Assembly (NCBI GenBank): GCA_021769425.1
Contig: JAETSX010000003.1
Span: forward strand, 69,678 to 133,677
DNA from: Eubacterium sp.
GTDB lineage: Bacteria; Bacillota; Clostridia; Lachnospirales; Lachnospiraceae
Direction: 5' to 3'
Length of the DNA: 64,000 bases
The notes under the pieces were generated by a model. The model saw nothing but the letters and a program-made list of their open reading frames with translations, was not told where the DNA came from and did no database searches. Numbering within the stretch: the first letter of the stretch is position 1; each line of letters starts with the position of its first letter. Both the position numbers and the translations under genes were made by a program. Shown one piece after another: positions 2,575 to 63,744 of this stretch.

Positions 2575-3615
2575 TTGACGATTACGGAGGAAGAAAAATT
2601 GAAGCTGATTATACAGATACCATGCTATAACGAGGCAGAAACACTGGAAATTGCCTTGAATGATCTGCCTAGGCAGATAGATGGAATCGACGAAATTGAA
2701 TATCTGATTATCAATGACGGCAGCAAGGACAACACCGTAGAGGTGGCAAGAAACTGGGGCGTAAACTATGTGGTGGATCTGAAACGGAATAAGGGGCTGG
2801 CCAAGGGATTTATGGCGGGACTGGACGCCTGCCTTAGAAATGGGGCGGACATTATCGTCAACACAGACGCCGATAACCAGTACTGCGCGGATGATATTGA
2901 GAAAATCGTCCGTCCCATACTGGAAGGGAAAACAGACATCGTCATTGGTGCAAGGCCGGTGGACGATACGGAGCACTGGTCTCCGTTAAAGAAAAAGCTG
3001 CAGCATTTCGGAAGCTGGGTGGTGCGCAAAGCCTCCCGCAGCGATATTCCCGATGCGCCCAGCGGTTTCAGGGCTTACAGCAGAGAAGCTGCCATGCGCC
3101 TGAATGTAGTCAATGAGTATACTTACACCTTAGAAACTATTGTTCAGGCCGGAAGAAGCAAGATTGCCATGGAATCCGTGCCCATCCGCACCAATGCGGA
3201 ACTGCGGCCTTCCCGGCTGTTCAGCAGCATGTTCGGCTATGTGAAGAAATCTATGCTCACAATTTTGAGGGCTTTTATGATGTACCGTCCCCTGATGGTC
3301 TTTTCCGTTATCGGCAGTATTATTTTTGCCGTGGGACTTGCCATCGGCATACGGTTTTTAGTATATTATTTCGGCGGAAACGGCGCAGGCCATATGCAGT
3401 CTTTGATTCTGGCCAGCACGCTGATGCTGTTGGGATTCCAGACCTTTATTGTAGGGCTTCTGGCAGATATTATCTCGGCTAACCGGAAAATATTGGAAGA
3501 TGTTCAATATCATGTCCGAAAACTGGATTTTGATCAAGCTGCGGAAAAAAAGAACGAGGCCAGGGACAGCGGGACTGCCCGGAAGCCGGATACAGATAAG
3601 AACATGGGAAAATAA
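2575..3615 (+). CDS. Membrane-anchored GT2, GtrB/CsbB/DPM1-like polyprenyl-phosphate glycosyltransferase
   Basis: IQIPCYNEAETL...LIINDGSKDNT...NTDADNQY catalytic domain, plus two C-terminal TM helices (LMVFSVIGSIIFAVGLAIGI, LILASTLMLLGFQTFIVGLLADII). The start is TTG and uncertain. Confidence 0.7.
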   Translation: MTITEEEKLKLIIQIPCYNEAETLEIALNDLPRQIDGIDEIEYLIINDGSKDNTVEVARNWGVNYVVDLKRNKGLAKGFMAGLDACLRNGADIIVNTDADNQYCADDIEKIVRPILEGKTDIVIGARPVDDTEHWSPLKKKLQHFGSWVVRKASRSDIPDAPSGFRAYSREAAMRLNVVNEYTYTLETIVQAGRSKIAMESVPIRTNAELRPSRLFSSMFGYVKKSMLTILRAFMMYRPLMVFSVIGSIIFAVGLAIGIRFLVYYFGGNGAGHMQSLILASTLMLLGFQTFIVGLLADIISANRKILEDVQYHVRKLDFDQAAEKKNEARDSGTARKPDTDKNMGK

Positions 3616-3782
3616 AGAAACGGCGCCGGGACTGCCGGAAGGCTGGATGCAGATAAGAACATGGAACAAGAATGAGGAAACGGCGCCGGGACTGCCGGAA
3701 GCCGGATGCAGATAGGAACATGGAACAAGAATGAGGAAACGGCGCCGGGACTGCCCGGAAGCCAGATGCAGAGATAGACACG
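3565..3782. repeat. Tandem repeat, about 3.5 copies of a 59-60 bp unit, starting inside the last codons of the GT2 gene
   Basis: The unit gaaacggcgccgggactgccggaagccggatgcagataagaacatggaacaagaatgag recurs at about 3617, 3677 and 3736. A diverged copy at 3565-3616 encodes the protein tail and stop. Confidence 0.9.
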
Positions 3783-3819
3783 AAAAATATAAGACAGAGA
3801 CAGTCAGGAGGGCTGAAAC

Positions 3820-4530
3820 ATGGTATACGGCGTAATTTTAGCAGGCGGCGTGGGCAGCCGCATGGGAAATGCAGAAAAGCCCAAGCAGTATCTCCAAATC
3901 GGCGAAAAGCCGATTATCATCCATACAGTGGAGAAAATGTATGTCCATCCGGAGATTGAAAAAGTTCTGGTATTATGTCCGGAACAGTGGGTATCCTATA
4001 CAAAAACCCTGTTGAAAAAGTACAGGCTTCCCACCGGGGAGATTGCTGTGCTCAAAGGCGGTTCCACCAGAAACGGAACTATAATGAATGCCATTTCCTA
4101 TATTGAGGAACAGGGAGATTTATCGGAGGATACGATTATTGTAACCCATGATTCAGTCAGGCCCTTTATCACTCACCGGATTATTTCAGAAAATGTGAAA
4201 TATGCCAGGAAATACGGGGCCTGCGATACAGTGATTTCCGCTACGGATACTATTGTGGAAAGCCGTGACGGAGAGGTGATCAGCGATATTCCGGATCGTT
4301 CCAAAATGTACCAGGGGCAGACTCCCCAGAGTTTTTGCGCACTCAAATTGAAAAACTTATATGAAAGCCTGAACGAAGAGGAAAGGAAAATTTTGACGGA
4401 TGCAGCCAAAATTTTTGCCATGAAAGGGGAAAAGGTTTATCTGGTTCAGGGGGAAGTTTCCAATATTAAAATCACCTATCCGTATGATCTGCGGGTAGCG
4501 GAAGCATTGATTAAAGAGGATAGAAAATAA
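3820..4530 (+). CDS. tarI: Ribitol-5-phosphate cytidylyltransferase (IspD/TarI family)
   Basis: VYGVILAGGVGSRMGNAEKPKQYLQIGEKPII cytidylyltransferase signature. It has a TAATG 1-nt overlap with a TarJ-like reductase gene. Confidence 0.8.
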   Translation: MVYGVILAGGVGSRMGNAEKPKQYLQIGEKPIIIHTVEKMYVHPEIEKVLVLCPEQWVSYTKTLLKKYRLPTGEIAVLKGGSTRNGTIMNAISYIEEQGDLSEDTIIVTHDSVRPFITHRIISENVKYARKYGACDTVISATDTIVESRDGEVISDIPDRSKMYQGQTPQSFCALKLKNLYESLNEEERKILTDAAKIFAMKGEKVYLVQGEVSNIKITYPYDLRVAEALIKEDRK

Positions 4531-5549
4531 TGTTAAATGCAGTGTATCGCTTAGTGGCGCCAAGAAGATTTGAAGTGGAATTTACGGAAATAGAATTGCG
4601 GAATGTGATCGTGCGGCCTACCCACCTGTCTATCTGCCGGGCAGATCAAAGATATTACCAGGGCACCCGTCCGGCGGAAGTTTTGGCAAAGAAACTGCCT
4701 ATGGCGCTGATTCATGAAGGAATCGGCCAGGTGGTCTATGATGAAACCGGAGAATATCAGACGGGCCAGCGGGTGGTAATGATCCCCAATACGCCCACAG
4801 AGCCGGATCCTGTCATTGCAGAAAATTATCTGCGCAGCAGCCGGTTCCGGGCCAGCGGGTTTGACGGATTTATGCAGGATTATGTGGAACTGGGACGGGA
4901 CAGGCTGGTGAGCCTTCCGACGGATATTGATTTACGGGTGGCGGCTTTTACAGAGCTGATTACGGTAAGCGTCCATGCCATCAGCAGATTTGACCGGATT
5001 GCCCACGGCAGACGCAGAAAGATAGGCATCTGGGGGGACGGCAACCTGGGATATATTACGGCTCTTTTATTCCATACCATGTTCCCGGACGTGAAGCTGT
5101 TTATTTTCGGCGTAGATGAAAATAAACTGGCGGATTTTGCTTTTGCAGAAGAAACCATTCTGGTCAAAGATATCCCAAAAGATCTGGAAGTGGACCATGC
5201 CTTTGAATGCGTAGGCGGAAACGGCGCCCAGATGGCCATCGATCAAATGATTGACCACATTGCGCCGGAAGGAACCATGGCCCTTTTGGGCGTGTCTGAG
5301 AATCATGTGCCAATCAATACCAGAATGGTGCTGGAAAAGGGCCTGCGCCTCTTTGGAAGCAGCAGAAGCGGCCGGGAGGATTTCGAACGGACCGTATCGC
5401 TGTTTGAGGAAAACCGGGAGTTGGTGGGCAATCTGCAGAACCTCATTGGAAGCGTTATTGAGGTGGGATCCATCGCTGATATGAAGGAAGCCTTTGAAAC
5501 GGATATCCGCAGGGCTTTTGGGAAGACAGTGATGGTCTGGAAGAACTAG
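4530..5549 (+). CDS. tarJ: Ribulose-5-phosphate reductase (Zn-dependent medium-chain dehydrogenase, TarJ-like)
   Basis: MLNAVYRLVAPRRFEV...RPTHLSICRADQRYYQGTR...LIHEGIG matches, from memory, the TarJ N-terminal pattern. The gene is coupled to tarI. Confidence 0.75.
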   Translation: MLNAVYRLVAPRRFEVEFTEIELRNVIVRPTHLSICRADQRYYQGTRPAEVLAKKLPMALIHEGIGQVVYDETGEYQTGQRVVMIPNTPTEPDPVIAENYLRSSRFRASGFDGFMQDYVELGRDRLVSLPTDIDLRVAAFTELITVSVHAISRFDRIAHGRRRKIGIWGDGNLGYITALLFHTMFPDVKLFIFGVDENKLADFAFAEETILVKDIPKDLEVDHAFECVGGNGAQMAIDQMIDHIAPEGTMALLGVSENHVPINTRMVLEKGLRLFGSSRSGREDFERTVSLFEENRELVGNLQNLIGSVIEVGSIADMKEAFETDIRRAFGKTVMVWKN

Positions 5550-5595
5550 TGGGGAGTAAGAATGCATAAGGATATAAGAAAAACAGCGTGAACAC

Positions 5596-6783
5596 ATGGA
5601 TAATAAAGCAGGAAAGAATATAATTCGGGGAATGATCAAGTTTTTGGTATACAAGGTTCTTTTTCCAGGCGTGTATGCCGCCGGAGCGCTTCGGAAAGTG
5701 AGAAAAGGAAAAACGATCTTCGTAGAACTTCACGGCAGTGCCTTAAGCGACAATTTTCGGCTTTTGAAAGAAGAGGCAGAGCAAAAACCAGGGTTTCAGA
5801 TCCGGGAATACTATCTGGATTTTCAGAAAGATTCTCTGTCTTATTACCGCAGATGCCTGGGGCTTTTGTGGGAGGCGTCAAATGCCCGGTATATTTTTCT
5901 CAATGATTCCTGCAATGTGCTGGGGGCTTTCAAAATGAGAAAAGGAAGCCGGATGATCCAGACCTGGCATGCCTGCGGCGCCTTTAAGAAGTGGGGATTC
6001 AGCGCAGCCGATCAGGAATACGGCGAGAGCCGTGAGGAACTTATGAAATATCCCTACCATCGGAATTATACTTTGGTGACTGTCAGCAGCCCGGAGGTGA
6101 TTTGGGCCTATCAGGATGCTTTTCAGGCGCCGGAGGCGGCAGTTCAGGCATTGGGAGTCAGCCGGACGGATGTTTATTTCCGCGAATCTTTCCGCCGGGA
6201 CGCTGAGCGGAAATATTTCAGACAGGTTCCCCAAGGGAACGGGAAAAAATGTATCCTGTATGTGCCCACATTCCGGGGAACCGGCGGGAAGGCAGACAGT
6301 CCGGGGATTTTGGACTATGCGTTTTTGAAACAGAAATTGGGACAGGATTATATCATCATTGAGAAACGCCATCCTTTTGTGAAAGAACCACTGAAATTGG
6401 AGGAATCCCTGAAAGATTTTGCCGTTGAGGACTGCGGATTGGAAATTGCAGAATTGCTCTGCATTGCGGATATCTGCGTAACAGATTATTCTTCTGTGGC
6501 GTTTGAATATTCATTGATGGAACGGCCGATGATATTTCTGGCCTATGATCTGGAAGAATATTTTGATAATCGGGGATTTTATTACGATTATCGGGAATTT
6601 GTGCCGGGTCCTGTGGTGAAAAACAGCGAAGAGCTTGCGGCGGCAGTCAGAAGCATCGGGGAGCAGCCGGAAGAAGCCAGGGAGAGAATTGCCGGGTTCC
6701 GGCAGAAATTTATGTCTTCCTGTGACGGACATGCCACAGAAAGAATCTGGCGGGAGATTGTGAAGCAGGACAACAGGAGCTGA
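5596..6783 (+). CDS. CDP-glycerol/CDP-ribitol polyol-phosphate transferase (TagB/TagF/TarL family)
   Basis: Motifs IQTWHACGAFKKWGF, LYVPTFRG, TDYSSVAFEY and CDGHATERI. Confidence 0.8.
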   Translation: MDNKAGKNIIRGMIKFLVYKVLFPGVYAAGALRKVRKGKTIFVELHGSALSDNFRLLKEEAEQKPGFQIREYYLDFQKDSLSYYRRCLGLLWEASNARYIFLNDSCNVLGAFKMRKGSRMIQTWHACGAFKKWGFSAADQEYGESREELMKYPYHRNYTLVTVSSPEVIWAYQDAFQAPEAAVQALGVSRTDVYFRESFRRDAERKYFRQVPQGNGKKCILYVPTFRGTGGKADSPGILDYAFLKQKLGQDYIIIEKRHPFVKEPLKLEESLKDFAVEDCGLEIAELLCIADICVTDYSSVAFEYSLMERPMIFLAYDLEEYFDNRGFYYDYREFVPGPVVKNSEELAAAVRSIGEQPEEARERIAGFRQKFMSSCDGHATERIWREIVKQDNRS

Positions 6784-6938
6784 ATGGCCGGCAGAATCCA
6801 TCGAATGACTGTCAGCAGGAATTGAATGGCCGGCAGAATCCATCGAATGACTGTCAGCAGGAATTGAATGGCCGGCAGAATCCATCGAATGACTGTCAGC
6901 AGGAATCGAATAGCCGGCAAAATCCATCGAATGTAAGG
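6781..6938. repeat. 42-bp tandem repeat: three perfect copies plus one degenerate partial copy, beginning exactly at the TGA stop of the upstream gene
   Basis: tgaatggccggcagaatccatcgaatgactgtcagcaggaat at 6781, 6823 and 6865, with a diverged copy at 6907-6938. Confidence 0.95.
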
Positions 6939-6951
6939 CAGGTTAGAAAGC

Positions 6952-8082
6952 ATGGGGAATAAGCTGAAAATAAGACAGGCATTGAAGGAATGCCTGAGAA
7001 AATTCATATTGCCTGTGGTATACCATATTTACTGCGTCCGGTATCCTGGCCCGGATCAGCGGCTTATCGTATTTGCCGACGCCCATCACAAGGAGTTTCC
7101 GGAGGATATGCGTCTGCTGAAAGAAGAAATGCAGCGGCGGGGGTACAAAGTTCAGGAACTGGTCCATGATTTTGCGGAAGTCAGCTTTGGGAAAAGCATA
7201 AAGGCGATGCTTTCCTTTCTAAAATATTACGCACAGGCAGGCCTGGTAGTGCTCTGTGATTACTACCTGCCTGTGATTTCCGTAAAAAAGCGGAAAGAAA
7301 CAAAAGTAATCCAGCTTTGGCATGCCTGCGGCGCCTATAAGAAATTTGGTTATGATGCCAGAGATGATTTGCTGTCAGTCAAGGATCAGAATATGTTCCG
7401 GAACTTTGATCTGGTTTCTGTCAGTTCTGAACACTGCAGAGTCGTGTATGCAGATGCCTTTCATCTTCCGTTGGAAAAAGTGCAGGCGTTGGGAGTCAGC
7501 CGGACGGATCGGTATTTTTCAGAATCATTTATGGAAGAATGCAGAAGCCGTTTTTTCAAAGAGTATCCTGAGGCGGCCGGCAGGAAAATTATCCTGTGGG
7601 CGCCTACCTTCCGTCACAATGCAGGGGAGGGAACGCTGTTTGGCGCAGAAGCCATAGACAGCCTTTGTGAAAAGCTTTCCGGGGAATGGTTTGTTATCCG
7701 GAAAGTTCATCCCCACCTGGAGAAAAAGATGGCGGCGTCTAACTGCAGAATTCCCACGGAACAGCTCTATGCGGCGGCGGATTTGCTGATTACCGATTAT
7801 TCTTCGGTAATTTTTGACTTTGCGCTGACAGGAAAGCCGATTCTGATTTATGCGCCGGATCGGACTCAATATGAAAAAGAACGGGGGTTTTACCTGGAGC
7901 TGGAGGAGCTTCCGGCACGGGTGGTCACAGATGGGGAGGAACTGGCAGAAGTAATTTCCCGGGGGGAATATAAAACGGCATCTGAGAAGTATGAGAAGTT
8001 TATAAAAAATCAGCTGCAGATGTGTGACGGACATGCCACCAGCCGGATTGCAGATTATATCGCAGATATGCAGGGCATGTGA
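6952..8082 (+). CDS. CDP-glycerol/ribitol polyol-phosphate transferase (TagF family)
   Basis: Motifs IQLWHACGAYKKFGY, LWAPTFRH, TDYSSVIFDF and CDGHATSRI. Confidence 0.8.
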   Translation: MGNKLKIRQALKECLRKFILPVVYHIYCVRYPGPDQRLIVFADAHHKEFPEDMRLLKEEMQRRGYKVQELVHDFAEVSFGKSIKAMLSFLKYYAQAGLVVLCDYYLPVISVKKRKETKVIQLWHACGAYKKFGYDARDDLLSVKDQNMFRNFDLVSVSSEHCRVVYADAFHLPLEKVQALGVSRTDRYFSESFMEECRSRFFKEYPEAAGRKIILWAPTFRHNAGEGTLFGAEAIDSLCEKLSGEWFVIRKVHPHLEKKMAASNCRIPTEQLYAAADLLITDYSSVIFDFALTGKPILIYAPDRTQYEKERGFYLELEELPARVVTDGEELAEVISRGEYKTASEKYEKFIKNQLQMCDGHATSRIADYIADMQGM

Positions 8083-52377: not shown

Positions 52378-53265
52378 TTAATATATAAGTTTACCATTAG
52401 CCACATTTAACAAATGTTGACCATATGGTGATTTTCCATATCTATGAGCCGATAACAATAAATTTTCTTTATCAATCCAACCCTTTTGGTAGGCAATTTC
52501 TTCCGGTGCTGAGATCTTAATCCCTTGACGTTTTTCGATCATTTGAACAAAATTTGATGCTCCGATTAAACTATCCATTGTTCCTGTATCAAGCCAGGCA
52601 AATCCACGCCCTAAGACAATGCCTTTTAATGCGCCATGCTGCAAATATAAGTCATTGAGTGTAGTGATTTCTAATTCTCCACGGGCAGATGGTTTTACTT
52701 GCTTTGCAAAATTTGTTACCCGGTTATCATAAAAATATAACCCAGTAATACAATAATTGCTTTTAGGATATTTGGGTTTCTCTTCCACAGATACAACTTG
52801 ATTTGTTTTTTCATTAAATTCCATAATTCCAAATCGTTCTGGGTCATTGACATAATAACCAAATATAGTTGCATTTCCTTTTTCTGCGTTTTGGACGGCT
52901 TTTAGAAGTTTGTCTTTTAATCCGCTGCCATAGAAGATATTGTCACCTAAAATTAATGAACAAGTGTCATTTCCTATGAAATTCTCCCCTAATAAGAATG
53001 CTTGAGCCAAGCCATCAGGAGAAGGCTGCGCTTTATAGGATAGAGAGATGCCATATTGGTTACCGTCACCTAACAAATTTTGAAAGTTAGGAAGATCTGT
53101 TGGTGTTGAGATTATTAAAATATCTTTTATGCCTGCTAACATTAATGTTGACAAAGGATAGTAGATCATTGGTTTGTCATATACCGGTAAAAGTTGTTTT
53201 GAAGTTACCATTGTCAATGGATAAAGCCTTGTACCTGCTCCACCAGCTAAAATAATTCCTTTCAT
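52378..53265 (-). CDS. rmlA: Glucose-1-phosphate thymidylyltransferase
   Basis: [46 protein letters not shown] is near-canonical RmlA. Confidence 0.9.
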
Positions 53266-53538: not shown

Positions 53539-55238
53539 TGTACCCTTTGTCAAGTACAAAAAGTTTTTGTATTGGTCAATACTGCCATGTTCACATGCTA
53601 GTGCTGCTTGCAGCTCTTAACTACCCGTTTGTATATCCGGCAGGTGGTGTCAAAGCCACCGCAGGTGAGGCAAAGTTGGTGCCTTAACACCGCCTGCCGG
53701 ATATGCCATCTAATCGTTGTTTGATGGCAGCTATTGGGGCTGGTTCCTCTATTACTTCCAAAGGATATTCACTTGCCATAATATAAATGTAATACTCATT
53801 TGATGACAGCCTAGCAAGCTGCCATTGGTAACGGTTATTGCTATAGCACTCTATCCAATCATCAATGACTGCCTTTACATTAGGGAAATCCCTGCTCCCA
53901 GACAGGTCAACCTCATCTTTTATGTGGTCGAAAAAACTCTCCTGCGGTGCATTGTCCCAGCAGTTGCCTTTCCTGGACATGGACTGCCTGAGCTGTGTAT
54001 TCCTAACAATCTGTATGAACTGGCAGCTTGTGTAATGGTATTCCTGGTCGCTGTGGATGATGGTTTCCGCACTGAGTAATATCCCATGCTCCCGAACCAG
54101 GGCATGCACATTCTCCAGGACAAAATCTATTTCAAGCGACTCGCTGACCCCTGTATGCAAGGACCTACTTCGTGAAAGCATCCAGGATGGTAGACAGATA
54201 GCAGAATGTGCCATGATACGGAACATAGGTAATGTTTGTCAGGAGTGCTTTTCTTGCACAGTGTGCCTCAAACTCCCTGTTCAGCAGGTTTCCGGCAACA
54301 TTGTTCGTCTGAAGTGCCTTCGCCATCCTGCGGTAAGGGTTTGCTTTCCTAATTGGACAGAACAGCCTATATTTGTCCATAAGGTGCCGTATTTTTTTAC
54401 GTTCATCCGCACGGGCGGATCGCTCTGGAGGAGACGCATATAAATGCTCCTTGCTTCTTTCTGATAGCCGCGGAAACAGTATGCTTCCAGCACCAGTGCA
54501 AAATCCGCCCTGTCTTTTTTCTTACGTGCCTGCTTGGCTTCTTCCACTTTTAGCCAGCTGTAGTACCCTGATCTGGATATCGCGGCGATCTCACAGAGAA
54601 GCGAAACGCTCAACTCATTTTCATGCTGGGAAATCACTTTTCGTATAACCTCGAATTTTACGCCTGTTTTTCCCATGACTACATCCCCCGTTTTGGCAAA
54701 CTGCCCGTATTCATAATTTTTTACAAACTCCATTTTCTGCCGGAGGTAAAGCAGCCCATGCTGCATCAGTTCCACTGCCTGATCCTTTGGGATTGAGGAG
54801 TAGTGTGTGAAATGGGGCCTGCGTTTCCTACTGGGCGCATTGCCCTCATGCAGCCCTTCGGGGGATCCTTCCTCTTTTCTGATATGGTCCCGTATGGCCT
54901 GCACACACCGTTTCCTGAGCGCATCAACATCTTACCCAAGATCCGTAAGGCTCCTTGGCGGGTACTGGACTGCCTGGTAGCGTTTCCAGAACTCTTTTTT
55001 GAATTCCAGCGTAAAACGTATTGTACTTTCAGAAATTCTGTATGTGTAAGGGTTTAATTGAAAAATGTTTATCTGCTGTTTGGTAAACTTGCTATGGTTG
55101 CGTGTCACTGCGGTTGTCCCTCCATATTAACTAAATGCAAAGTCACTGTCTAATATTTAGGATTCCCATAAATCTTCTGTCTATTACTTGGGAGTTCCTA
55201 TGATTTACACAAACTTTGTGTCAAGTTTTATGGGTACG
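53539..55238 (-). mobile_element. IS3-family insertion sequence, decayed copy; boundaries approximate
   Basis: Imperfect terminal inverted repeats: TGTACCCTTTGTCAAGTACAAAAAGTTT at 53539, and the reverse complement of aaactttgtgtcaagttttatgggtac ending at about 55237. OrfA/orfB-type genes lie inside. Confidence 0.55.
53684..55108 (-). pseudogene. IS3-family transposase orfA/orfB, inactivated
   Basis: DDE core HSDQEYHYTS...SMSRKGNCWDNAPQESFF and an A7 slippery run at 54392-54398, which is expected for the family. Lesions: in-frame TAA at 54932-54934, in-frame TAG at 54165-54167, and a likely 1-nt insertion in the cccc run at 54148-54151. Confidence 0.7.
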
Positions 55239-55420
55239 TTTTATGTAAATTATCTATATACTAGAGTCGAATCAGGTTAAATTTTAGTATTTTATATAGA
55301 TAATTTTATGATAGATGATTGAACCATACAAGGGGCTTTTAAATATAATTCCAAAAGTCAATGAAATTATACTTCATCCAAGTTTAAAAAATTATGTTTA
55401 CCTGAAGTTAACAATTTTTC

Positions 55421-55450
55421 TTGACAAAGTAAGGGGGGGGGGGGTAAACT
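55421..55450 (+). promoter_or_regulatory. Promoter whose -35/-10 spacer consists mostly of a G12 tract
   Basis: TTGACA (55421-55426), an 18-nt spacer aagtaa+G12, then TAAACT (55445-55450). GGGAGG and ATG 55474 lie downstream. Confidence 0.6.
55433..55444. repeat. Homopolymeric G12 tract
   Basis: 12 consecutive G read directly, in an otherwise AT-rich region. Confidence 0.95.
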
Positions 55451-55473
55451 AATAAAAAATCTAGGGAGGTAGT

Positions 55474-55731
55474 ATGGTGTATTTTTTTAGAGGCGTTATG
55501 CAAGATATTCTTGTGAAGAAAAAAACGAATGAAGAAGCAAGCGTCAGGAGGAATAAATGGGAGTGTTTTAGAAATGTTTTAGCGGCATCTTCAAAAAAAA
55601 ATATTGTTTGGCTTATGTTATTTTCTTTGCTGCTGTCTACTTGTTTTTTTACCTATATAAATGCATTCATAAATAAAATTATGCCCAGAGACGAACTTAT
55701 GGTTACAAAACAGGGAAGAGTGGAATTATGA
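55474..55731 (+). CDS. Small membrane-anchored protein (85 aa); possibly the detached N-terminus of the next gene
   Basis: A single TM (IVWLMLFSLLLSTCFFTYINAFI), with an RBS upstream. No homology recognised. Confidence 0.35.
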   Translation: MVYFFRGVMQDILVKKKTNEEASVRRNKWECFRNVLAASSKKNIVWLMLFSLLLSTCFFTYINAFINKIMPRDELMVTKQGRVEL

Positions 55732-55744
55732 GAATAATGTAATT

Positions 55745-57469
55745 TTGGGCAAAACTAAGGGAAGTTCGATTGCGATACCAATAGTGAGGGCTCCCAATGG
55801 GGGGATCAGCGTTTGGTGTCAGGCATCTTCAGGGGAAATAAATGTTGGCGTGGGCGGAGAAGTAAAACATTATGAACTGTATTCAGAAGAGGGAGCCTAT
55901 ATACAGATTACGCCCTTTGAAGACAGTTTTATTTCCGTATTGGTTACAATAGTGGTCTATTCTATTCTGGCATGCCTTGTAATGATTTTACTGATTCTTG
56001 GGGTAAGTTTTTTTCAATATATATGTGTTAATTTTAAGGAGCCTCAATATGAATATTGGATGTTGGTGCTGGTGTTATTCATAGGTACTTATTTATTTGA
56101 TGTTATTTGGTATAGGAGAGGGATTGTGAATTTTAATGCCTTTGGGGATCAGCCATATTATTGGGAGAAGGGAGGAGCGTTTGCTCAGATAGGCATCACC
56201 AGGGAAATGATTGTTGAGGAATTGAAATCAATTGCATGTTTTAGAGGATACGGTAATTTTTTGCCAAGTTTTATTGCACAGTTTATTGGAAATAGGTTTC
56301 ATGTGGATGCTTATATTATTTATTTTCTGTTTCCGTCTTTAACGAATGCTGTGTTGTTTGGCTATATCCTTCCAAAGATTTATGAAATCTTTCATGGAAA
56401 AAAGGTTTTTAGGTGGCAGATTTTAATGGCGCTATGCGGTTTTATGATTTTGTATAAAGGGCAATTGGTAGGTCTATTAGGAGATTTTTATGGCTTAACT
56501 CTTTATTTGGCGGGAACGTTATATGCAATATTGATTTTTAGAACGGGAGATAGGAAATATGCTGTTGTCAGCGGTGCATGTTTCTCATTATGTTTAACGA
56601 TACGGACTAGTTATTTAATAGGAGTTGTGTTGTTTATAGTTTTAATGGTGATTATGACAGTGCTAAATTTCACGGGAAAATTACAGCGTAATAATATTTA
56701 TATGATGGGTGAAATGTCAGGAAAATGTGCTGCAGGAATAATTGCTGCGTTTACGGCATCGTTCTTGTGTGTATGTATCCCTCAGGTGTATATTAATGGA
56801 CTGCAGGGGCATAGAGGGCTTTTTGCTTATGATAAAGATGGGGCATATGGAACACAATCTACCACATTGTTGGAGCAGTCGGCGGATTATGCTTTAAGAG
56901 GATATCTAGCAGGCTATCCCTATAGCATCTATGATAAACAAATCCATTCTATCAGACAGGAGGCAGGATATCGGGATGATAAAGAAATGACGATGGCGCA
57001 GTGTTTTGATGCATATGCCAAAAGCCCGGTAGATACATTGGCGGCTATATTAAAAAGGGCTTTTGCAATGGTGGATGCCAAAACTAATATAATATTACCT
57101 GATGAAAGATGGTATACGCACACAAAATACTATATATTTAGCACCATAAATTATGTTTTTATTGCAGCAGCGTTATTTACTTTTTTAAATAAACGATTAA
57201 GACGGTTATTGTATAAAAAAGCGGAACTACTTTTTTGGGGAGTGATTCTAATAGGGCCTATAGCTCCGCTATTGGCGGCAAAGGTGGAGTGGAGAGAAGC
57301 GATAGTTGGATATCTTTTTTATATAAGCTATGTGTGCGCGTTTTGTTTTACGGGAAGTATTTATGATGAAGAGAAGAAAAGGGCAATAAGAGAGAGTAAT
57401 TTTCTTCCGTTTTTAACATGTACAGTATTAATCTTTCATACAGTTTCGCTTACTATGTATCATTATTAA
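55745..57469 (+). CDS. Large polytopic membrane protein, candidate GT-C-type transferase of the decoration module
   Basis: More than 12 hydrophobic segments. The only available start is TTG or another non-ATG codon before the first TM. Its position is equivalent to ArnT/GtrC-type genes. Confidence 0.35.
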   Translation: MGKTKGSSIAIPIVRAPNGGISVWCQASSGEINVGVGGEVKHYELYSEEGAYIQITPFEDSFISVLVTIVVYSILACLVMILLILGVSFFQYICVNFKEPQYEYWMLVLVLFIGTYLFDVIWYRRGIVNFNAFGDQPYYWEKGGAFAQIGITREMIVEELKSIACFRGYGNFLPSFIAQFIGNRFHVDAYIIYFLFPSLTNAVLFGYILPKIYEIFHGKKVFRWQILMALCGFMILYKGQLVGLLGDFYGLTLYLAGTLYAILIFRTGDRKYAVVSGACFSLCLTIRTSYLIGVVLFIVLMVIMTVLNFTGKLQRNNIYMMGEMSGKCAAGIIAAFTASFLCVCIPQVYINGLQGHRGLFAYDKDGAYGTQSTTLLEQSADYALRGYLAGYPYSIYDKQIHSIRQEAGYRDDKEMTMAQCFDAYAKSPVDTLAAILKRAFAMVDAKTNIILPDERWYTHTKYYIFSTINYVFIAAALFTFLNKRLRRLLYKKAELLFWGVILIGPIAPLLAAKVEWREAIVGYLFYISYVCAFCFTGSIYDEEKKRAIRESNFLPFLTCTVLIFHTVSLTMYHY

Positions 57470-57527: not shown

Positions 57528-58655
57528 ATGGTTCCATTTAATGTACCGCCCTATTTGGGGTCTGAATTAGATTATATAAAGGATGTTGTGAGGGAGCGCA
57601 AGATATGCGGGGATGGCGCCTATACGAAAAAGTGCAATGCCTGGTTGGAAGAGCATACTGGGACGAAAAAGGCTTTGCTTACCACTTCTTGTACACATGC
57701 CACGGAGATGGCTGCGTTACTCTGCAAAGTTGGGCCGGGAGATGAAGTCATAATGCCATCGTATACCTTCGTGTCTACGGCAGATGCATTTGTCCTTCGG
57801 GGAGCAACGGTGGTTTTTGTGGACATCAGGCCAGATACGATGAATATTGACGAAACATTGATAGAAGCTGCCATTACAGATAAAACTAAGGCGATTGTGC
57901 CAGTTCATTATGCAGGTGTGTCATGCGAGATGGATGTTATTATGAAAATTGCAGAACGATATCATTTATTTGTAATCGAAGACGCTGCGCAGGGGCTCAT
58001 GAGCACATATAAAGGAAAAGCGCTTGGCGCTATAGGAGATTTTGGCTGCTACAGCTTTCATGAAACGAAAAACCTTTCTATGGGGGAAGGCGGGGCGTTG
58101 CTTATAAAAAATGAAAAGGATATTGAAACGGCGGAAATTATACGCGAAAAGGGAACGAATCGCAGTAAATTTTTTCGAGGGCAAATTGATAAGTATACAT
58201 GGGTGGAACAGGGCTCATCGTATTTGCCAAGCGAGCTTAATGCGGCATATCTTTATGCTCAGCTGGAAAGAGGAAATGAAATGATTAATAACCGAGTTGC
58301 AAGCTGGAACAATTACTATGAGGAACTGAAACCATTGGCGGATGCAGGGAAAATAGATCTTCCAACGATACCTAAGGAGTGTACCCATAATGGGCATATG
58401 TTTTATATTAAAACAAAGAATCTTAAGGAACGTTCCGAGTTTCTTTCATTCATGAGGGAGAATAATGTTGGATGCGTATTCCATTACATACCGCTTCACA
58501 CATCGCCGGCGGGTAAAAGATATGGGCGATTTGTGGGTGAGGACAAGTATACCACAAAAGAAAGTGAACGTCTTGTAAGATTGCCTATGTACTATGGATT
58601 AAAAAAAGAAGATTGCCAGAAAGTGTGTGAGAAAGTGAAGGATTTTTATAAGTAG
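57528..58655 (+). CDS. wecE: dTDP-4-amino-4,6-dideoxygalactose transaminase
   Basis: MVPFNVPPYLGSELDYI...GDEVIMPSYTFVSTADAFVLRGATVVFVDIRPDTMNIDETLIEAAITDKTKAIVPVHYAGV...IIREKGTNRSKFFRGQIDKYTW is nearly collinear with E. coli WecE as I recall it. Confidence 0.8.
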   Translation: MVPFNVPPYLGSELDYIKDVVRERKICGDGAYTKKCNAWLEEHTGTKKALLTTSCTHATEMAALLCKVGPGDEVIMPSYTFVSTADAFVLRGATVVFVDIRPDTMNIDETLIEAAITDKTKAIVPVHYAGVSCEMDVIMKIAERYHLFVIEDAAQGLMSTYKGKALGAIGDFGCYSFHETKNLSMGEGGALLIKNEKDIETAEIIREKGTNRSKFFRGQIDKYTWVEQGSSYLPSELNAAYLYAQLERGNEMINNRVASWNNYYEELKPLADAGKIDLPTIPKECTHNGHMFYIKTKNLKERSEFLSFMRENNVGCVFHYIPLHTSPAGKRYGRFVGEDKYTTKESERLVRLPMYYGLKKEDCQKVCEKVKDFYK

Positions 58656-59009
58656 ATGATGAAACAAGAGAGGATAAAAGTGTACATTGAATTGCACATA
58701 TTGCTCTTGATTTATTCTTTAGGTGCAGTATGTTCGAAATATGCGGGGCAAAATGAATTTTTGTCCGGCGGGTTTATATTTTATTATGGATTAGTGCTGC
58801 TCGACTTAGCCATATATGCAATTGCTTGGCAGCAGATATTGAAAAAACTGCCTTTAGTAACAGCTTATGCAAATAAGGCTGTTACAATTATCTGGGGGTT
58901 ACTGTGGGGAACGTTGATTTTTAAAGAGAAAGTGACTGTTTGGAATATTATTGGAGCAATTATAATAGTAGTTGGGATATATCTGGTGGTGATGGAAGAT
59001 GCGGGATGA
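58656..59009 (+). CDS. Small 4-TM EamA/SMR-like protein (ArnE-like flippase subunit)
   Basis: 117 aa with 4 hydrophobic segments. It is paired with a second gene of similar size that overlaps it by 11 nt. Confidence 0.55.
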   Translation: MMKQERIKVYIELHILLLIYSLGAVCSKYAGQNEFLSGGFIFYYGLVLLDLAIYAIAWQQILKKLPLVTAYANKAVTIIWGLLWGTLIFKEKVTVWNIIGAIIIVVGIYLVVMEDAG

Positions 59010-59346
59010 TTTGGGATATGTGGTTATATTTCTGGCAGCAGTTTTAATGTCATCTATATCACAAATTTTATTAAAAAAAAGTGCGGAACAAGAATGTGAA
59101 AGTAGGATAAAAGAATATCTGAATATTCCTGTTATCGTAGCGTATGGATTGTTATTCTGTTCATCGCTTGTTATAGTTCTGGCTTATAGAGGGGTTCCAT
59201 TGAATATGGGACCCGTATTGGAAGCGACAGGATATATATGGGTTTCGATTTTAGGTGTGATATTTTTAAAAGAACATATTAAAGGGAAGAAAATATTGGG
59301 TTTAATAGTAATTATAATAGGAATATTTATTTTTAATATATCATAG
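58999..59346 (+). CDS. Small 4-TM EamA/SMR-like protein (ArnF-like flippase subunit)
   Basis: 115 aa with 4 hydrophobic segments, overlapping the previous gene. Confidence 0.55.
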   Translation: MRDDLGYVVIFLAAVLMSSISQILLKKSAEQECESRIKEYLNIPVIVAYGLLFCSSLVIVLAYRGVPLNMGPVLEATGYIWVSILGVIFLKEHIKGKKILGLIVIIIGIFIFNIS

Positions 59347-59355
59347 GAGAAAAGG

Positions 59356-60291
59356 ATGAAATTACTAAGTTTTGTTATACCTTGTTATAGAAGTGAAAAA
59401 ACGATAGAAAAAGTTATTGATGAAATTATTTTTGTTGTTGGAAAAAGGGCAGAGTATGATTATGAAATAATAGCAGTAAACGATTGCTCGCCGGACAATG
59501 TATATGAAGTGCTTAAGAATTGCGCCTTGCAAAACTCCAAGATTAAAATTGTTAATTTAGCAAGAAATGTTGGAAAGCATGCTGCGGTTATGGCTGGATA
59601 CGCATTTGTTAATGGTGAGTATATTATTAATTTAGATGATGATTTTCAATGTCCTGTATATGAGCTATGGAATCTTCTCGCTCCCCTTTTAGCGAATGAT
59701 GCAGATATTGCTACTGCGGAATATAAAATAAAGAAAGAATCAATATTGAAACGTTTTGGCAGTAATGTGAACCTTTGGTTTTCAGAACGGATGTTGGATA
59801 AGCCTAAAGGCATTCGTTTTGAAAATTTTAGTGCTATGAAAAGGTTTGTTTGTGAAGAAGTTAAGAATTATAAAAATCCATATCCTTATTTAGAGGGGCT
59901 TTTAATGGGGGTTTCTAAGCAAATTGTTACTGTGCCTATGGAAAATCGAAAACGAGCGGATGACAATATTTCAGGATTTACTATGATTAAATCAATATCG
60001 TTGTTTGTAAATGGATTGACAACATTTTCAACTAAGCCTCTTAGAATAGCCTCTTTTATAGGGTTTTTATTTGCTGTTATAGGATTTGTTTATGGTGTAG
60101 CTATTGTTATTCAAAAATTAGTAAATCCGGATGTGCTTTTAGGGTACAGTTCTATTATGGCAGTTATTATTTTTTCTAGTGGAATTATGATGATGATACT
60201 TGGGATGATTGGGGAGTATGTGGGGCGTATCTATATAAGCCTTAATAATTCACCGCCCCAATATGTGATTAAAGAAAAGATTAATTTATAA
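59356..60291 (+). CDS. ArnC/GtrB-like GT2 polyprenyl-phosphate sugar transferase
   Basis: LSFVIPCYRSEKTIEKVI...IIAVNDCSPDN...NLARNVGKHAAVMAGYAFVNGEYIINLDDDFQCP, plus two C-terminal TMs. Confidence 0.7.
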   Translation: MKLLSFVIPCYRSEKTIEKVIDEIIFVVGKRAEYDYEIIAVNDCSPDNVYEVLKNCALQNSKIKIVNLARNVGKHAAVMAGYAFVNGEYIINLDDDFQCPVYELWNLLAPLLANDADIATAEYKIKKESILKRFGSNVNLWFSERMLDKPKGIRFENFSAMKRFVCEEVKNYKNPYPYLEGLLMGVSKQIVTVPMENRKRADDNISGFTMIKSISLFVNGLTTFSTKPLRIASFIGFLFAVIGFVYGVAIVIQKLVNPDVLLGYSSIMAVIIFSSGIMMMILGMIGEYVGRIYISLNNSPPQYVIKEKINL

Positions 60292-60484: not shown

Positions 60485-61405
60485 ATGAATGTTACGTCAT
60501 TTGTGGATAATAATTATAGATATATCAGGAGTTTTATAAATAGGGATTATGGTGTTTTGGCAGAGCAGATAAAGAAAGAAAAAAATATTTTATCTTATTA
60601 TGAGGAAAAGGATGATTTGTTAGTAGGATATAGAATTGAAAAAAATAATTCAGTGAGCAATATATATGGATTTGATTGTTATGTAGTCAGGTTCTATTTT
60701 GCGAACGTATCTACATTGCACAATGAATATCAGGAAATGCTATATCAGAATTTGCTAAAGAATTTAAAGAAAGAAATGGAAAAGAGGAATGGATACTATA
60801 ACTTGCGGATTCCTACTCATATGGTTGATATGGTAAAAGCGTTTAATGGGGTGTTTGAAAAACCTATTTTTTGTGGAGGAACAGTTGAAGAATTTATATT
60901 TAATAAACAGGTTGGTCAGAGTAATAGAAACCAATTAAATATATTTGAAGCGGAGCGAAGATATTTACAGAACAATAAAGAATTATTACTTAAGATGACG
61001 TATGAGTCATTTGCGACTTACCAAGGTCAATATCATATTTCAGGCGTGACAGAATATCAGGCTGGAAAAATATATGAGAACTGGATTAACGATAGTCTGA
61101 GTGGCGAATCAGGGGATAAGATTATTGTGGCAGAATTTGAGAACCGACCAATCGGCTTTGTAACCATTGGGGAAGATGATTTTTCAGTTGAAGGGATATT
61201 GTCTGCCGTTTCTAGTGAGAATAGGCAATTAGGGGCATATAGGTCAATGATTACGTATATTATAAATTATGCGTATTTAAGAGGAAAAGCATTTATTACA
61301 AGTACACAGTTCGATAATTTTATCGTACAGGGAACTTGGAATTCATTAGGATTACGGCCTTTTTACTCCATATATAATATGCATTTAGATTATCGAAAAA
61401 TTTGA
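60485..61405 (+). CDS. GNAT-fold acyltransferase with an N-terminal extension, possibly a WecD-like dTDP-fucosamine acetyltransferase
   Basis: C-terminal IIVAEFENRPIGFVTIGEDD...RQLGAYRSMITYIINYAYLRGKAFITSTQ is a GNAT core. The gene sits in a wecE context. Confidence 0.4.
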   Translation: MNVTSFVDNNYRYIRSFINRDYGVLAEQIKKEKNILSYYEEKDDLLVGYRIEKNNSVSNIYGFDCYVVRFYFANVSTLHNEYQEMLYQNLLKNLKKEMEKRNGYYNLRIPTHMVDMVKAFNGVFEKPIFCGGTVEEFIFNKQVGQSNRNQLNIFEAERRYLQNNKELLLKMTYESFATYQGQYHISGVTEYQAGKIYENWINDSLSGESGDKIIVAEFENRPIGFVTIGEDDFSVEGILSAVSSENRQLGAYRSMITYIINYAYLRGKAFITSTQFDNFIVQGTWNSLGLRPFYSIYNMHLDYRKI

Positions 61406-61624: not shown

Positions 61625-63247
61625 TTACATTGTGCCAGAACAATTCACAATAACATTCGGATCCCAAGGGGCTAACTTTGCAAGTGCGGTATCCGTCATT
61701 TTAGTGCATGGCAGATTTTGTAATAGATATTTCAAATACTTGTAAATGTTCAGGTTATGTGCTTTGGCCATTTCAACCATTGTATATACCGTCGCACTTG
61801 CTTCCGCTCCTTTCGGCGTATCACTAAACAGCCAATTCTTACGGCCTAAAGTAAAGGGGCGGATGGAATTCTCTGACAGGTTATTAGAAAAACTACAACG
61901 TCCATCTTCTAAATATGTCATGGACAGTTCTTTATGATTTTGGGCATAGTTCACCGCTTTCTCAAAGCGCGTTCCTTTTTTAGGAGTCTGCTGTGGGAGC
62001 CATGTCCAAAAAGCATCCAGCACGGGTTTCTCTTTTTGGAGCCGGTATTCCTTCAGCTGTTCATAGGCATGTCCTTTCTGCTGTGACTGCATTTCATATT
62101 CGAACAGTCTGTTACAGCACTGGACTGCCTGGGCTGCCGGATTGCTGTAATCCAGTTCTTTCACTTTGGGGACTGTTTCCACAAAATATCTGCGCAGATG
62201 CGCTGGGCAGCAGCAACGTTTGATATCTGGCAGATTATTATATCCCTGATAACCATCTGTCTCAAGGTAGCCTTTAAATCCTCTCAAGAATTCCTCAGCA
62301 TTAAATTTTGCCCTGGTTTCCGTATACTTATAGAGAAGAATCGGAGGCAGCCCATCTTCTCCTGTATGGAAAAGCCACATATATGAGTCCGTTTCCGCTT
62401 TACGCCCTGGCTCTTTTAAAACCTGGACCCTGGTCTCATCGGCCATAAGGAACTGGCATTTCAAAAGTTCCCGATGGAAATGATCATACAGCGGGCTGAG
62501 ATAATTTCAGGAACAGTGGATGCTCCAGTTTGCCAGTGTTGCCCTTGAGAGGGTGATGCCCATCTGTTTCCAGTCCTGTTCCTGACGGTATAATGGCATG
62601 GCATTGGCATATTTTTGATACATCATCCATGCAACCACGGAGGCTGACGCGTAACTATGGGGAATCAGCGCCTCCGGTACATTCGCTTTTACAAACTGGA
62701 TGTTCCGGGCCATAGCAGACGCAGTGGAGCATTTCGGACATTTTGCTGTTTCCCGGTAGATATTGACGACTTCCCCTTTCGCCGGAGTAAAACGGAACTC
62801 CAGACGGACGAATTCCTTCCCAATGACTTTCATTTCAGTGCCGCAATCTGGGCAATGTTTCTGCTCTTCAGAAAGCGGGAGCGCCTCATCCCTGGATGGG
62901 ACTCCTTTGAAAATTTCATCACCGGTACGTTTGGCATGGCGTGTATGTTCTTTGACAATGGCCGTTTCTGATCCTTGTGACTCATCCATCGGCTGCGCTT
63001 CCTGTTCCGCTTCATTAAACAGGCTTAACTGCCCTTTGTTATTCTTTGATTTTTCGCTGGAAGTGCCGAAGAGCTTCCCTGTAAGATACTCTACCTGCTC
63101 ACGAAGTCCCGTAATTGTAGAATTGCATTCTTCTACTGTGCCACGAAGAGACATGATCAGTTCGTTCTGGCTGCTTATCATCATATTTAATTGGCTGATC
63201 ATATCTTTCTGCTCCATGATCTTGGAGTCTTTTGCATCCTTCGCCAT
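61625..63247 (-). pseudogene. tnpC: IS66 transposase TnpC interrupted by one in-frame TGA
   Basis: The two ORFs (62507-63247 and 61625-62464) are in the same frame: ...ANWSIHCS TGA NYLSPLYDHFHRELLKCQFLMADETRVQVL. Zn-finger CPDCG...CPKCS and a DDE_Tnp_IS66 core are present. Confidence 0.8.
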
Positions 63248-63366
63248 ATGTTTTCTGCCCCTTTTCTGATACTTCTATTTTACCATAAAACGCTCTTGAA
63301 AAGAAGCAGAAAACGCAGTGTTTTCAAGGATTGCAGCAATGTTTGGCTAACCTCTGCCAAAGCATT

Positions 63367-63744
63367 TTATGTAGCTTGTTCTGAAGGACTGTCATCTGCA
63401 ACATCGGAAATCCGGAATGCTTTTGGCTGTTCAATCTCAAGTCCTGACATCAGCCAGTCGAATTGCTGCCAGGTAAGTGACCTTACCTCTTCGGAATTCC
63501 GGGGCCAGCGGAACCGGCCCGGTACCTCCATCCGTTTATAGAGAAGTAAAAAACCATCTCCCTCCCAGAGAAGTGCCTTGATCCTGTCGCATCTTTTCCC
63601 ACAGAACAGATATAGGGCACTGCGCCTTGGGTCCATATGGAGCTTATCCTGCACAATAGCGCAAAGACCATCAATTGCACGTCTCATATCTGTATAGCCA
63701 CAGACGATATTGATTTCATCCGCAGCGGTAATGTCGCCTAACAT
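63367..63744 (-). CDS. tnpB: IS66 Orf2 (TnpB)
   Basis: INIVCGYTDMRRAIDGLCAIVQDKL...LYLFCGKRCDRIKALLWEGDGFLLLYKRME is the canonical IS66 TnpB. Confidence 0.9.
   Translation of the reverse strand: MLGDITAADEINIVCGYTDMRRAIDGLCAIVQDKLHMDPRRSALYLFCGKRCDRIKALLWEGDGFLLLYKRMEVPGRFRWPRNSEEVRSLTWQQFDWLMSGLEIEQPKAFRISDVADDSPSEQAT

Follow-up and report, generated by a model that had tools for sequence, protein, structure and literature searches.

The window, the whole 64-kb stretch of DNA analysed here from the mouse-gut Lachnospiraceae bacterium Eubacterium sp., contains an uninterrupted run of 12 G residues in the spacer of a predicted promoter, directly upstream of a predicted operon for surface-glycan decoration. 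In sequences of the same strain the run is 11, 12 or 13 G long. We consider it probable, at roughly three chances in four, that G12 is a hypermutable repeat in the spacer of a sigma-A-type promoter and that it works as a contingency switch of the porA/fetA type with graded expression. Slipped-strand mispairing in replication would add or remove G residues, and the distance between the -35 and -10 hexamers would shift between 17 nt (G11), 18 nt (G12), and 19 nt (G13). A one-base change in the length of a promoter spacer is known to alter promoter strength. Transcription of the operon would be set stochastically and heritably, highest with G11, intermediate with G12, and low with G13, in the manner of a volume control. 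The dependence of transcription on G number, the reversibility, the switching rate, and the biochemical roles of the gene products are what we infer from the sequences. Surface-glycan modification, the predicted function of the operon, is a cargo typical of phase-variable loci.

The G12 tract lies in the spacer of a predicted promoter

The predicted promoter is on the + strand and is sequentially composed of a -35 hexamer, a spacer, and a -10 hexamer. The -35 hexamer, TTGACA (55421–55426), is a perfect match to the consensus and is identical in the two sister-clade promoters, p1 and p2, described below. The 18-nt spacer (55427–55444) reads aagtaa followed by the G12 homopolymer (55433–55444), which is the variable element. 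The -10 hexamer, TAAACT (55445–55450), matches the consensus at four of six positions, including the key A2 and T6, and is invariant across all relatives. A Shine-Dalgarno (SD) sequence, GGGAGG (55464–55469), and the ATG at 55474 of the first gene complete the arrangement (55464–55476). In the same-strain contigs L030, L031, and L037, the intact 703-aa gene is called from the same ATG. Transcription would start near 55457, giving a leader of about 17 nt. The first-pass annotation had described the hexamers, the 18-nt spacer, GGGAGG, and the start codon in the same way, and the sequence agrees with it base for base.

The tract stands out from its surroundings. It is the sole run of G or C longer than 7 in the 64-kb window, where the next longest is one G7 and no run of C reaches 6. 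Runs of at least 12 G are expected 0.002 times in 64 kb if bases are independent and identically distributed and 0.01 times under a first-order Markov model. The intergenic DNA at 55058–55473, minus the tract, has a G+C content of 29%. These values bear out the earlier statement that a G12 run is unlikely by chance in such AT-rich DNA. With G12, the locus has the form of the promoter-spacer type of phase-variable locus, in which an uninterrupted homopolymer of at least about 8 nt separates the -35 and -10 elements.

A consensus scan returned the TTGACA/TAAACT pair as the top promoter-like match on the + strand of 54.8–62 kb, with 10 of 12 positions matching. Promoter-like matches in this interval are no more frequent than in shuffled sequence, so the hexamers alone are not evidence of a promoter. 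They are credible because they are kept in relatives and lie 23 nt ahead of a strong SD and ATG. The promoter is thus predicted from its consensus match together with its conservation.

Other accounts of the region were considered. An Rfam scan of 54900–55900 returned no credible RNA family, which leaves a riboswitch or leader RNA without support. An outward promoter borne by an insertion sequence (IS) was rejected, since the ORFs of the nearby IS3 remnant stop at 54904, about 500 nt upstream, and relatives that lack the IS have the same promoter. The promoter, searched as an exact pattern with a gap of variable length, gave no match in two scans of JGI metagenome contigs, and the strains are absent from the JGI collection. 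A megablast search of the module against PLSDB plasmids also gave no match.

Tract length differs among sequences of the same strain

Contigs of the same strain, recognised by the same IS3 and IS66 flanks, were found by exact-protein look-up in the Logan assemblies of three sequencing runs. Look-ups with the 306-aa and 115-aa proteins of the window retrieved same-strain contigs only. The tract is G12 in the window and in SRR13008590 (spacer 18 nt), G11 in SRR13008598 (17 nt), and G13 in SRR13008591 (19 nt); all of these lengths are those of assembly consensus sequences, and the consensus of an Illumina metagenome at G11–G13 may err by one base. The G11 allele, which the first-pass annotation had named as the one that would give the optimal 17-nt spacer, therefore exists in SRR13008598. 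The annotation had also suggested that tract length would vary, and this coarse check in public assemblies, with three lengths in the same strain, agrees.

Between L033 and L034, from the G12 and G11 runs, a single G is the only difference across 11.1 kb, and L037 matches L030 at every base of the 3.46 kb compared outside the tract. The window differs from the contigs of SRR13008590 and SRR13008598 only by a 116-nt deletion, described below, besides the tract, which is one G longer than in SRR13008598. An A9 run (55593–55601) and a T7 run are invariant among the same-strain sequences, unlike the G tract. Tract length therefore differs between otherwise identical, clonal genomes, as judged by assembly consensus sequences, not read counts. 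A single-G change in otherwise identical DNA is the signature of a hypermutable repeat.

The three lengths would be misleading if the strain had one true length and G11, G12, and G13 were homopolymer errors in low-coverage Illumina metagenomes. In favour of such errors, Illumina platforms easily misread long G runs, the Logan contigs are de Bruijn assemblies that have had no polishing, and the three contigs with differing tracts were all produced in a single study. A literature search on the run accession gave no hit. Against such errors, the consensus of several reads normally gives the modal length, and the A9 and T7 runs in the same contigs never differ. The sister-clade tract described below is G10 in at least six assemblies, so assemblers treat such tracts consistently. 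Coding tracts of G6–G9 in a further clade, which are far less error-prone, vary between SNP-identical haplotypes from different studies. Taken together, we regard errors of this kind as a very improbable source of the variation. The existence of the tract is a separate matter: it is not an assembly artefact of the window record, because runs of G10–G13 are there in three same-strain Logan assemblies and at least six sister-clade assemblies. A poly-G dark-cycle or contig-end artefact was rejected, as the tract is internal and was seen again in independent assemblies.

The A9 run lies in the 5' part of the first gene and is interrupted (AAAGAAAAA) in the sister clade.

A sister clade keeps the promoter with a G10 tract

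The closest genome in a collection of species representatives is that of the mouse-gut "Lachnospiraceae bacterium" MGBC000170 (locus L001), whose first gene shares 86% amino acid identity with that of the window. In this sister clade the promoter reads TTGACA-aaagtgtaa-G10-TAAACT, with a spacer of 19 nt, and is followed by AATAAAAAATC.AGGGAGG.AGTATG as in the window. An uninterrupted tract is thus kept at the homologous position in relatives, with a constant length that is ambiguous as to mutability. This conservation shows that the tract has been maintained.

The promoter occurs once in sister-clade genomes with a single copy of the first gene and twice where that gene is tandemly duplicated. 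The duplicated GT-C-like genes of L001 lie at 2930–5106 and 5549–7725, and L005 and L041 have the same arrangement. Each L001 copy stands behind its own identical TTGACA-N9-G10-TAAACT promoter. The promoter core is identical at both paralogues, in contrast to the more distal upstream DNA, which has diverged. The interval between the two L001 copies showed no terminator-like site. With such a duplication, two transferase specificities could be switched independently or in combination.

Two boxes upstream of the core are also conserved. The boxes, CCAAAAGTCAAT.AAATTAT... and AATTATGTTTAC (55351–55402, + strand), lie 20–70 nt before the -35 hexamer and are kept in the window, in L001 p1, and in L001 p2, in the midst of neighbouring DNA that has diverged. 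They are possible sites for a regulator such as an activator, or possibly part of a second, distal promoter, and in this respect count against the main reading. A TTTAAA-N18-TAAAAT match overlaps a conserved upstream box in L001 p1.

G10 was found in all sister-clade assemblies seen, at least six from at least five studies, and in both paralogue promoters. A further look-up with P0002 for sister-clade contigs added no assembly. The set comprises two isolates and the metagenomes ERR1145758, SRR12959761, SRR7227861, and DRR519811. The DRR519811 haplotype carries 42 SNPs in 16 kb and is still G10. This constancy speaks for a G10 that is either far less prone to mutation than G12 or held at a single length by selection. 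With its nominally poor 19-nt spacer, an invariant G10 fits selection for a fixed length, or low mutability, better than free switching. By inspection, no alternative -10 or -35 hexamer makes the sister-clade spacer 17 nt. The equation of 17 nt with the ON state is uncertain, because the sister clade is fixed at G10 and a 19-nt spacer.

The tract could alternatively be a fixed structural element, in which poly(dG).poly(dC) geometry or a bound factor is needed and changes of one base up or down are tolerated noise, not a switch. The invariance of G10 in all sister-clade assemblies and both paralogue promoters, despite the nominally poor spacer, would be expected of such an element. The window clade has three fewer non-G bases and two more G residues than the sister clade, and the total spacer is therefore nearly preserved, at 18 versus 19 nt, which also suits a fixed element. 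However, the four same-strain sequences have three lengths among them, without a further mutation in the 3.5–11 kb of the contig comparisons, and coding tracts of merely G7–G9 vary and knock out ORFs in a further clade. In addition, a one-base change of the spacer is known to alter promoter strength at fetA and porA. We consider a fixed element unlikely.

Coding poly-G tracts vary in a KK002-like clade

A more distant Lachnospiraceae clade, referred to as KK002-like, carries a first gene that is 63% identical to that of the window. Here the operon is located within a longer transcription unit and is without a G-tract promoter. Poly-G tracts are found instead inside two genes of the loci L006–L014, wecE (at about 5685) and an upstream GT4 gene (at about 1135). 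The wecE gene is intact and in frame with G7, and split with G6, G8, or G9. The GT4 gene is intact and in frame with G9, and split with G10. An interrupted GGAAAGGGG allele is present in some KK002-like haplotypes and is presumably locked.

The variation is concentrated in the tracts. Within each of two haplotype sets (L007/L011/L013 and L008/L010/L012), there are no SNPs over 7.9 kb, and poly-G length is the only difference. In an alignment of the nine loci, all internal indels but one fall in the poly-G tracts. Since these coding tracts vary and break ORFs, tracts of this kind are mutable in these bacteria. The decoration operon family appears to have acquired poly-G switches by two routes, a promoter spacer and frameshift tracts. 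Two routes in one operon family speak for selection that favours stochastic expression of this decoration.

Predicted functions of the operon

The five genes downstream of the first gene are all on the + strand. The first of them (57528–58655) encodes a 375-aa WecE-type dTDP-4-amino-4,6-dideoxyhexose transaminase. It matches the NCBIfam equivalog NF008687 with 639.6 bits against a cutoff of 375 and TIGR02379 with 639.6 bits against 434.85, in addition to the Pfam family DegT_DnrJ_EryC1. The assignment as WecE is solid at the level of these profile matches. Two overlapping genes follow (58656–59346), encoding small proteins of 117 and 115 aa with four transmembrane (TM) helices each. The pair matches the SMR/EamA families and is ArnE/ArnF-like, with matches to ArnE at E-values of 8e-7 and 2e-5, which are weak and below the curated cutoffs; it constitutes a putative flippase.

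The next gene (59356–60291) encodes a GT2 glycosyltransferase with two C-terminal hydrophobic helices that are visible in the sequence and are taken as TM helices. The protein matches Pfam PF00535 (E-value 4e-26) and resembles PgfS, ArnC, and GtrB, with NCBIfam matches to PgfS (1.5e-42) and ArnC (2.4e-36) that both fall under the equivalog cutoffs. It is a putative polyprenyl-phosphate sugar synthase. The last gene (60485–61405) encodes a 306-aa protein with a C-terminal GNAT-like domain, recognised by a match to Pfam Acetyltransf_1 that is below cutoff (E-value 0.004). Its resemblance to WecD is weak: the NCBIfam WecD match (E-value 9e-4) reaches 19 bits, under the cutoff of 219, and the protein does not qualify as a WecD-type N-acetyltransferase. 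It may instead be an N-acyltransferase of another type that acts on the amino sugar.

The most economical reading of these genes is a lipid-carrier-dependent, extracytoplasmic decoration of a glycan, similar to Arn and Gtr, in which the roles other than that of WecE are predicted from family resemblance. WecE, together with RmlA encoded upstream on the other strand, would make a dTDP-4-amino-4,6-dideoxyhexose of the Fuc4N or viosamine type, and the GNAT-like enzyme may acylate the amino sugar. The ArnC/GtrB-like GT2 would load the sugar onto polyprenyl phosphate, and the ArnE/F-like pair would flip the lipid-linked sugar across the membrane. Finally, the 703-aa GT-C-like protein encoded by the first gene would transfer the sugar to a cell-surface polymer. 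The suggestion of an amino-sugar decoration operon in the first-pass annotation is backed by the WecE equivalog, the ArnC/PgfS-like GT2, the ArnE-like small proteins, and the GT-C-like fold of the first protein.

The logic predicted here matches that of the Gtr, Arn (L-Ara4N), and CsbB/YfhO systems, in which a GT2 polyprenyl-phosphate synthase, a small flippase, and a polytopic GT-C protein act in decoration on the outside of the membrane. The operon of the window differs from these systems in its sugar, predicted to be a dTDP-4-amino-4,6-dideoxyhexose from the presence of WecE, and in a transferase that has no detectable sequence family. O-antigen glucosylation by Gtr in Salmonella is phase-variable as well; there, Dam and OxyR bring about epigenetic switching without a repeat.

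The supply of the nucleotide sugar is encoded nearby. The RmlA gene, for dTDP-glucose supply, is located at 52378–53265 on the - strand, and its product matches TIGR01207 with 457 bits against a cutoff of 361. It belongs to a low-GC polysaccharide locus at about 38–53 kb of the window, whose gene order is common to the MGBC000170 relative: EpsG, a Wzx-type flippase, further genes, an acetyltransferase, a MaoC-like gene, DegT, and RmlA on the minus strand. In relatives, the intergenic DNA from rmlA to the promoter measures only about 390 nt. The window has a degenerate IS3-family element with fragmentary ORFs of 207 and 180 aa (53684–54904, - strand) between rmlA and the promoter region. An IS66-family element with a transposase split into 246 and 279 aa, plus TnpB (61625–63744, - strand), bounds the module downstream. 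In the sister clade, an rve fragment is present downstream of the module (L038, 17526–17888).

The first gene and its deletion in the window

The first gene (55474–57469, + strand) encodes a polytopic membrane protein, 703 aa long if intact, that is described here from its ORFs, an AlphaFold model, and a Foldseek search. The 693-aa and 703-aa forms of the protein gave no match in Pfam or NCBIfam and no credible match in a profile search against PDB sequences. The family is tiny, comprising 14 clusters among 5.8 billion proteins. An AlphaFold (AF2) model of the full-length member P0001 has a pLDDT of 73 and a pTM of 0.70. The top PDB matches of the model in Foldseek are all GT-C proteins, namely, EmbA (E-value 9e-4), EmbB, DPY19, AftA, ALG9, and PglB, with low TM-scores of 0.2–0.32. 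The model thus weakly suggests a GT-C-like fold.

In the window, the gene is split into an 85-aa ORF (55474–55731) and a 574-aa ORF (55745–57469). The split results from a 116-nt out-of-frame deletion between 55708 and 55709, which is found only in the window and is absent from the same-strain contigs. L030, L031, and L037 carry the intact 703-aa gene with the same IS flanks. The 85-aa fragment holds TM helix 1, which is missing from the 574-aa ORF; the latter begins at an internal TTG that has no SD. The transferase of the window is probably inactive regardless of tract length, and since the first gene is broken, the switch may have no phenotype in the window strain. Possibly the deletion arose recently and is confined to one isolate or metagenome-assembled genome.

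The locus could accordingly be viewed as a decaying relic in the window genome, in which the tract still mutates and controls no phenotype; such a view overlaps the main explanation. It would account for the frameshifted transferase gene of the window, for a 574-aa remainder that has neither an SD nor TM helix 1, and for the IS remnants, degenerate IS3 and IS66, on both sides. However, sibling populations that share the IS flanks have an unbroken 703-aa gene, and the window itself retains all five genes downstream in intact form. We regard a relic as rather unlikely, although it deserves more weight than a fixed element or sequence errors.

For the G12 tract, a hypermutable promoter spacer remains the preferred reading. 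The first-pass annotation had proposed that the operon is expressed in a phase-variable way. This proposal is supported: the tract varies, the promoter is conserved in the sister clade, and coding tracts switch ORFs in the KK002-like clade. It is weakened by the broken first gene of the window and by the invariant G10 of the sister clade.

The first gene also varies in sequence. In L032, from SRR31732370, the GT-C gene (1–2101) is a mosaic when compared with L030, with 87–94% identity, and the genes from wecE to the GNAT-like gene are 99–100% identical. The GT-C gene looks like a recombining specificity cassette. The L032 contig starts just downstream of the expected position of the poly-G tract, where a heterogeneous tract could have broken the assembly.

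Comparison with known phase-variable systems

Repeats that switch a surface structure by changing promoter spacing are known from the poly-A spacer of Mycoplasma hyorhinis vlp and the TA-repeat promoter of Haemophilus influenzae hifA/hifB. As in the window, a repeat in the core promoter changes the -35/-10 spacing in both systems; unlike in the window, A or TA is the repeat unit. At hif, two genes are under the control of a divergent promoter, whereas the tract of the window appears to serve the + strand operon only, because the IS3 remnant now separates it from rmlA. The work on the hif promoter is a reference given in PMC11868660.

In Neisseria, poly-C or poly-G located between the -10 and -35 elements of fetA and porA controls expression (PMC5320596). 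The tracts of porA (poly-G), fetA/frpB (poly-C), and also opc resemble that of the window in that a G/C tract of about 10–14 nt lies between the -35 and -10 elements. Tract length at porA and fetA sets the spacing and the graded level of transcription, and differs between strains (PMC5320596). The systems differ in host and cargo, the window host being a Gram-positive-type anaerobic gut commensal and its cargo a multi-gene glycan operon, not one outer-membrane protein. Surface-glycan genes are the classic cargo of poly-G tracts in Campylobacter (PMC8355987). In Campylobacter jejuni, tracts of G8–G13 are concentrated in such genes, those for the capsule, LOS, and flagellar glycosylation. The majority of the Campylobacter tracts lie within genes, in contrast to the promoter spacer of the window, and their frameshift ON/OFF switching is like that of the wecE and GT4 tracts of the KK002-like clade.

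The mechanism is a textbook one, familiar from pathogens, and the host and setting are new. Full-text literature searches returned no paper on repeat-mediated phase variation in Lachnospiraceae, nor at the level of Clostridia or Firmicutes. Phase variation in gut commensals is known mainly through invertible promoters (Bacteroides, Clostridioides) and methylation. We tentatively suggest, at slightly less than even odds, that poly-G repeats constitute a general, undescribed phase-variation system for surface-glycan decoration in gut Lachnospiraceae, with duplicated switchable GT-C paralogues and a recombining cassette. If so, the same operon would repeatedly have come under stochastic control, by a promoter-spacer tract, by duplicated GT-C paralogues with G10 promoters, and by frameshift tracts in wecE and the GT4 gene. 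Commensals would then possess a repertoire of contingency loci like that of Campylobacter and Neisseria, which would shape recognition by IgA and phages in the gut. Secretory IgA and phages probably target the decorated surface glycan. If the switch is confirmed, poly-G length could be read from metagenomes as a marker of commensal surface state. Annotation pipelines would also need caution, as OFF alleles would be called pseudogenes.

Start site of the first gene in the sister clade

The sister clade and the window differ at the start of the first gene, as seen when L001 5603–5650 is compared with window 55474–55500. In the sister clade, the SD and ATG open a mini-ORF of five codons (MMFLF*). 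The 693-aa ORF has a GTG start 41 nt downstream of the SD and ATG, without an obvious SD of its own. A GTG start or a leader-peptide arrangement is a candidate explanation for the sister clade. The window clade differs by 2 nt within a T-rich stretch, which brings the SD and ATG in frame and gives rise to the 703-aa product.
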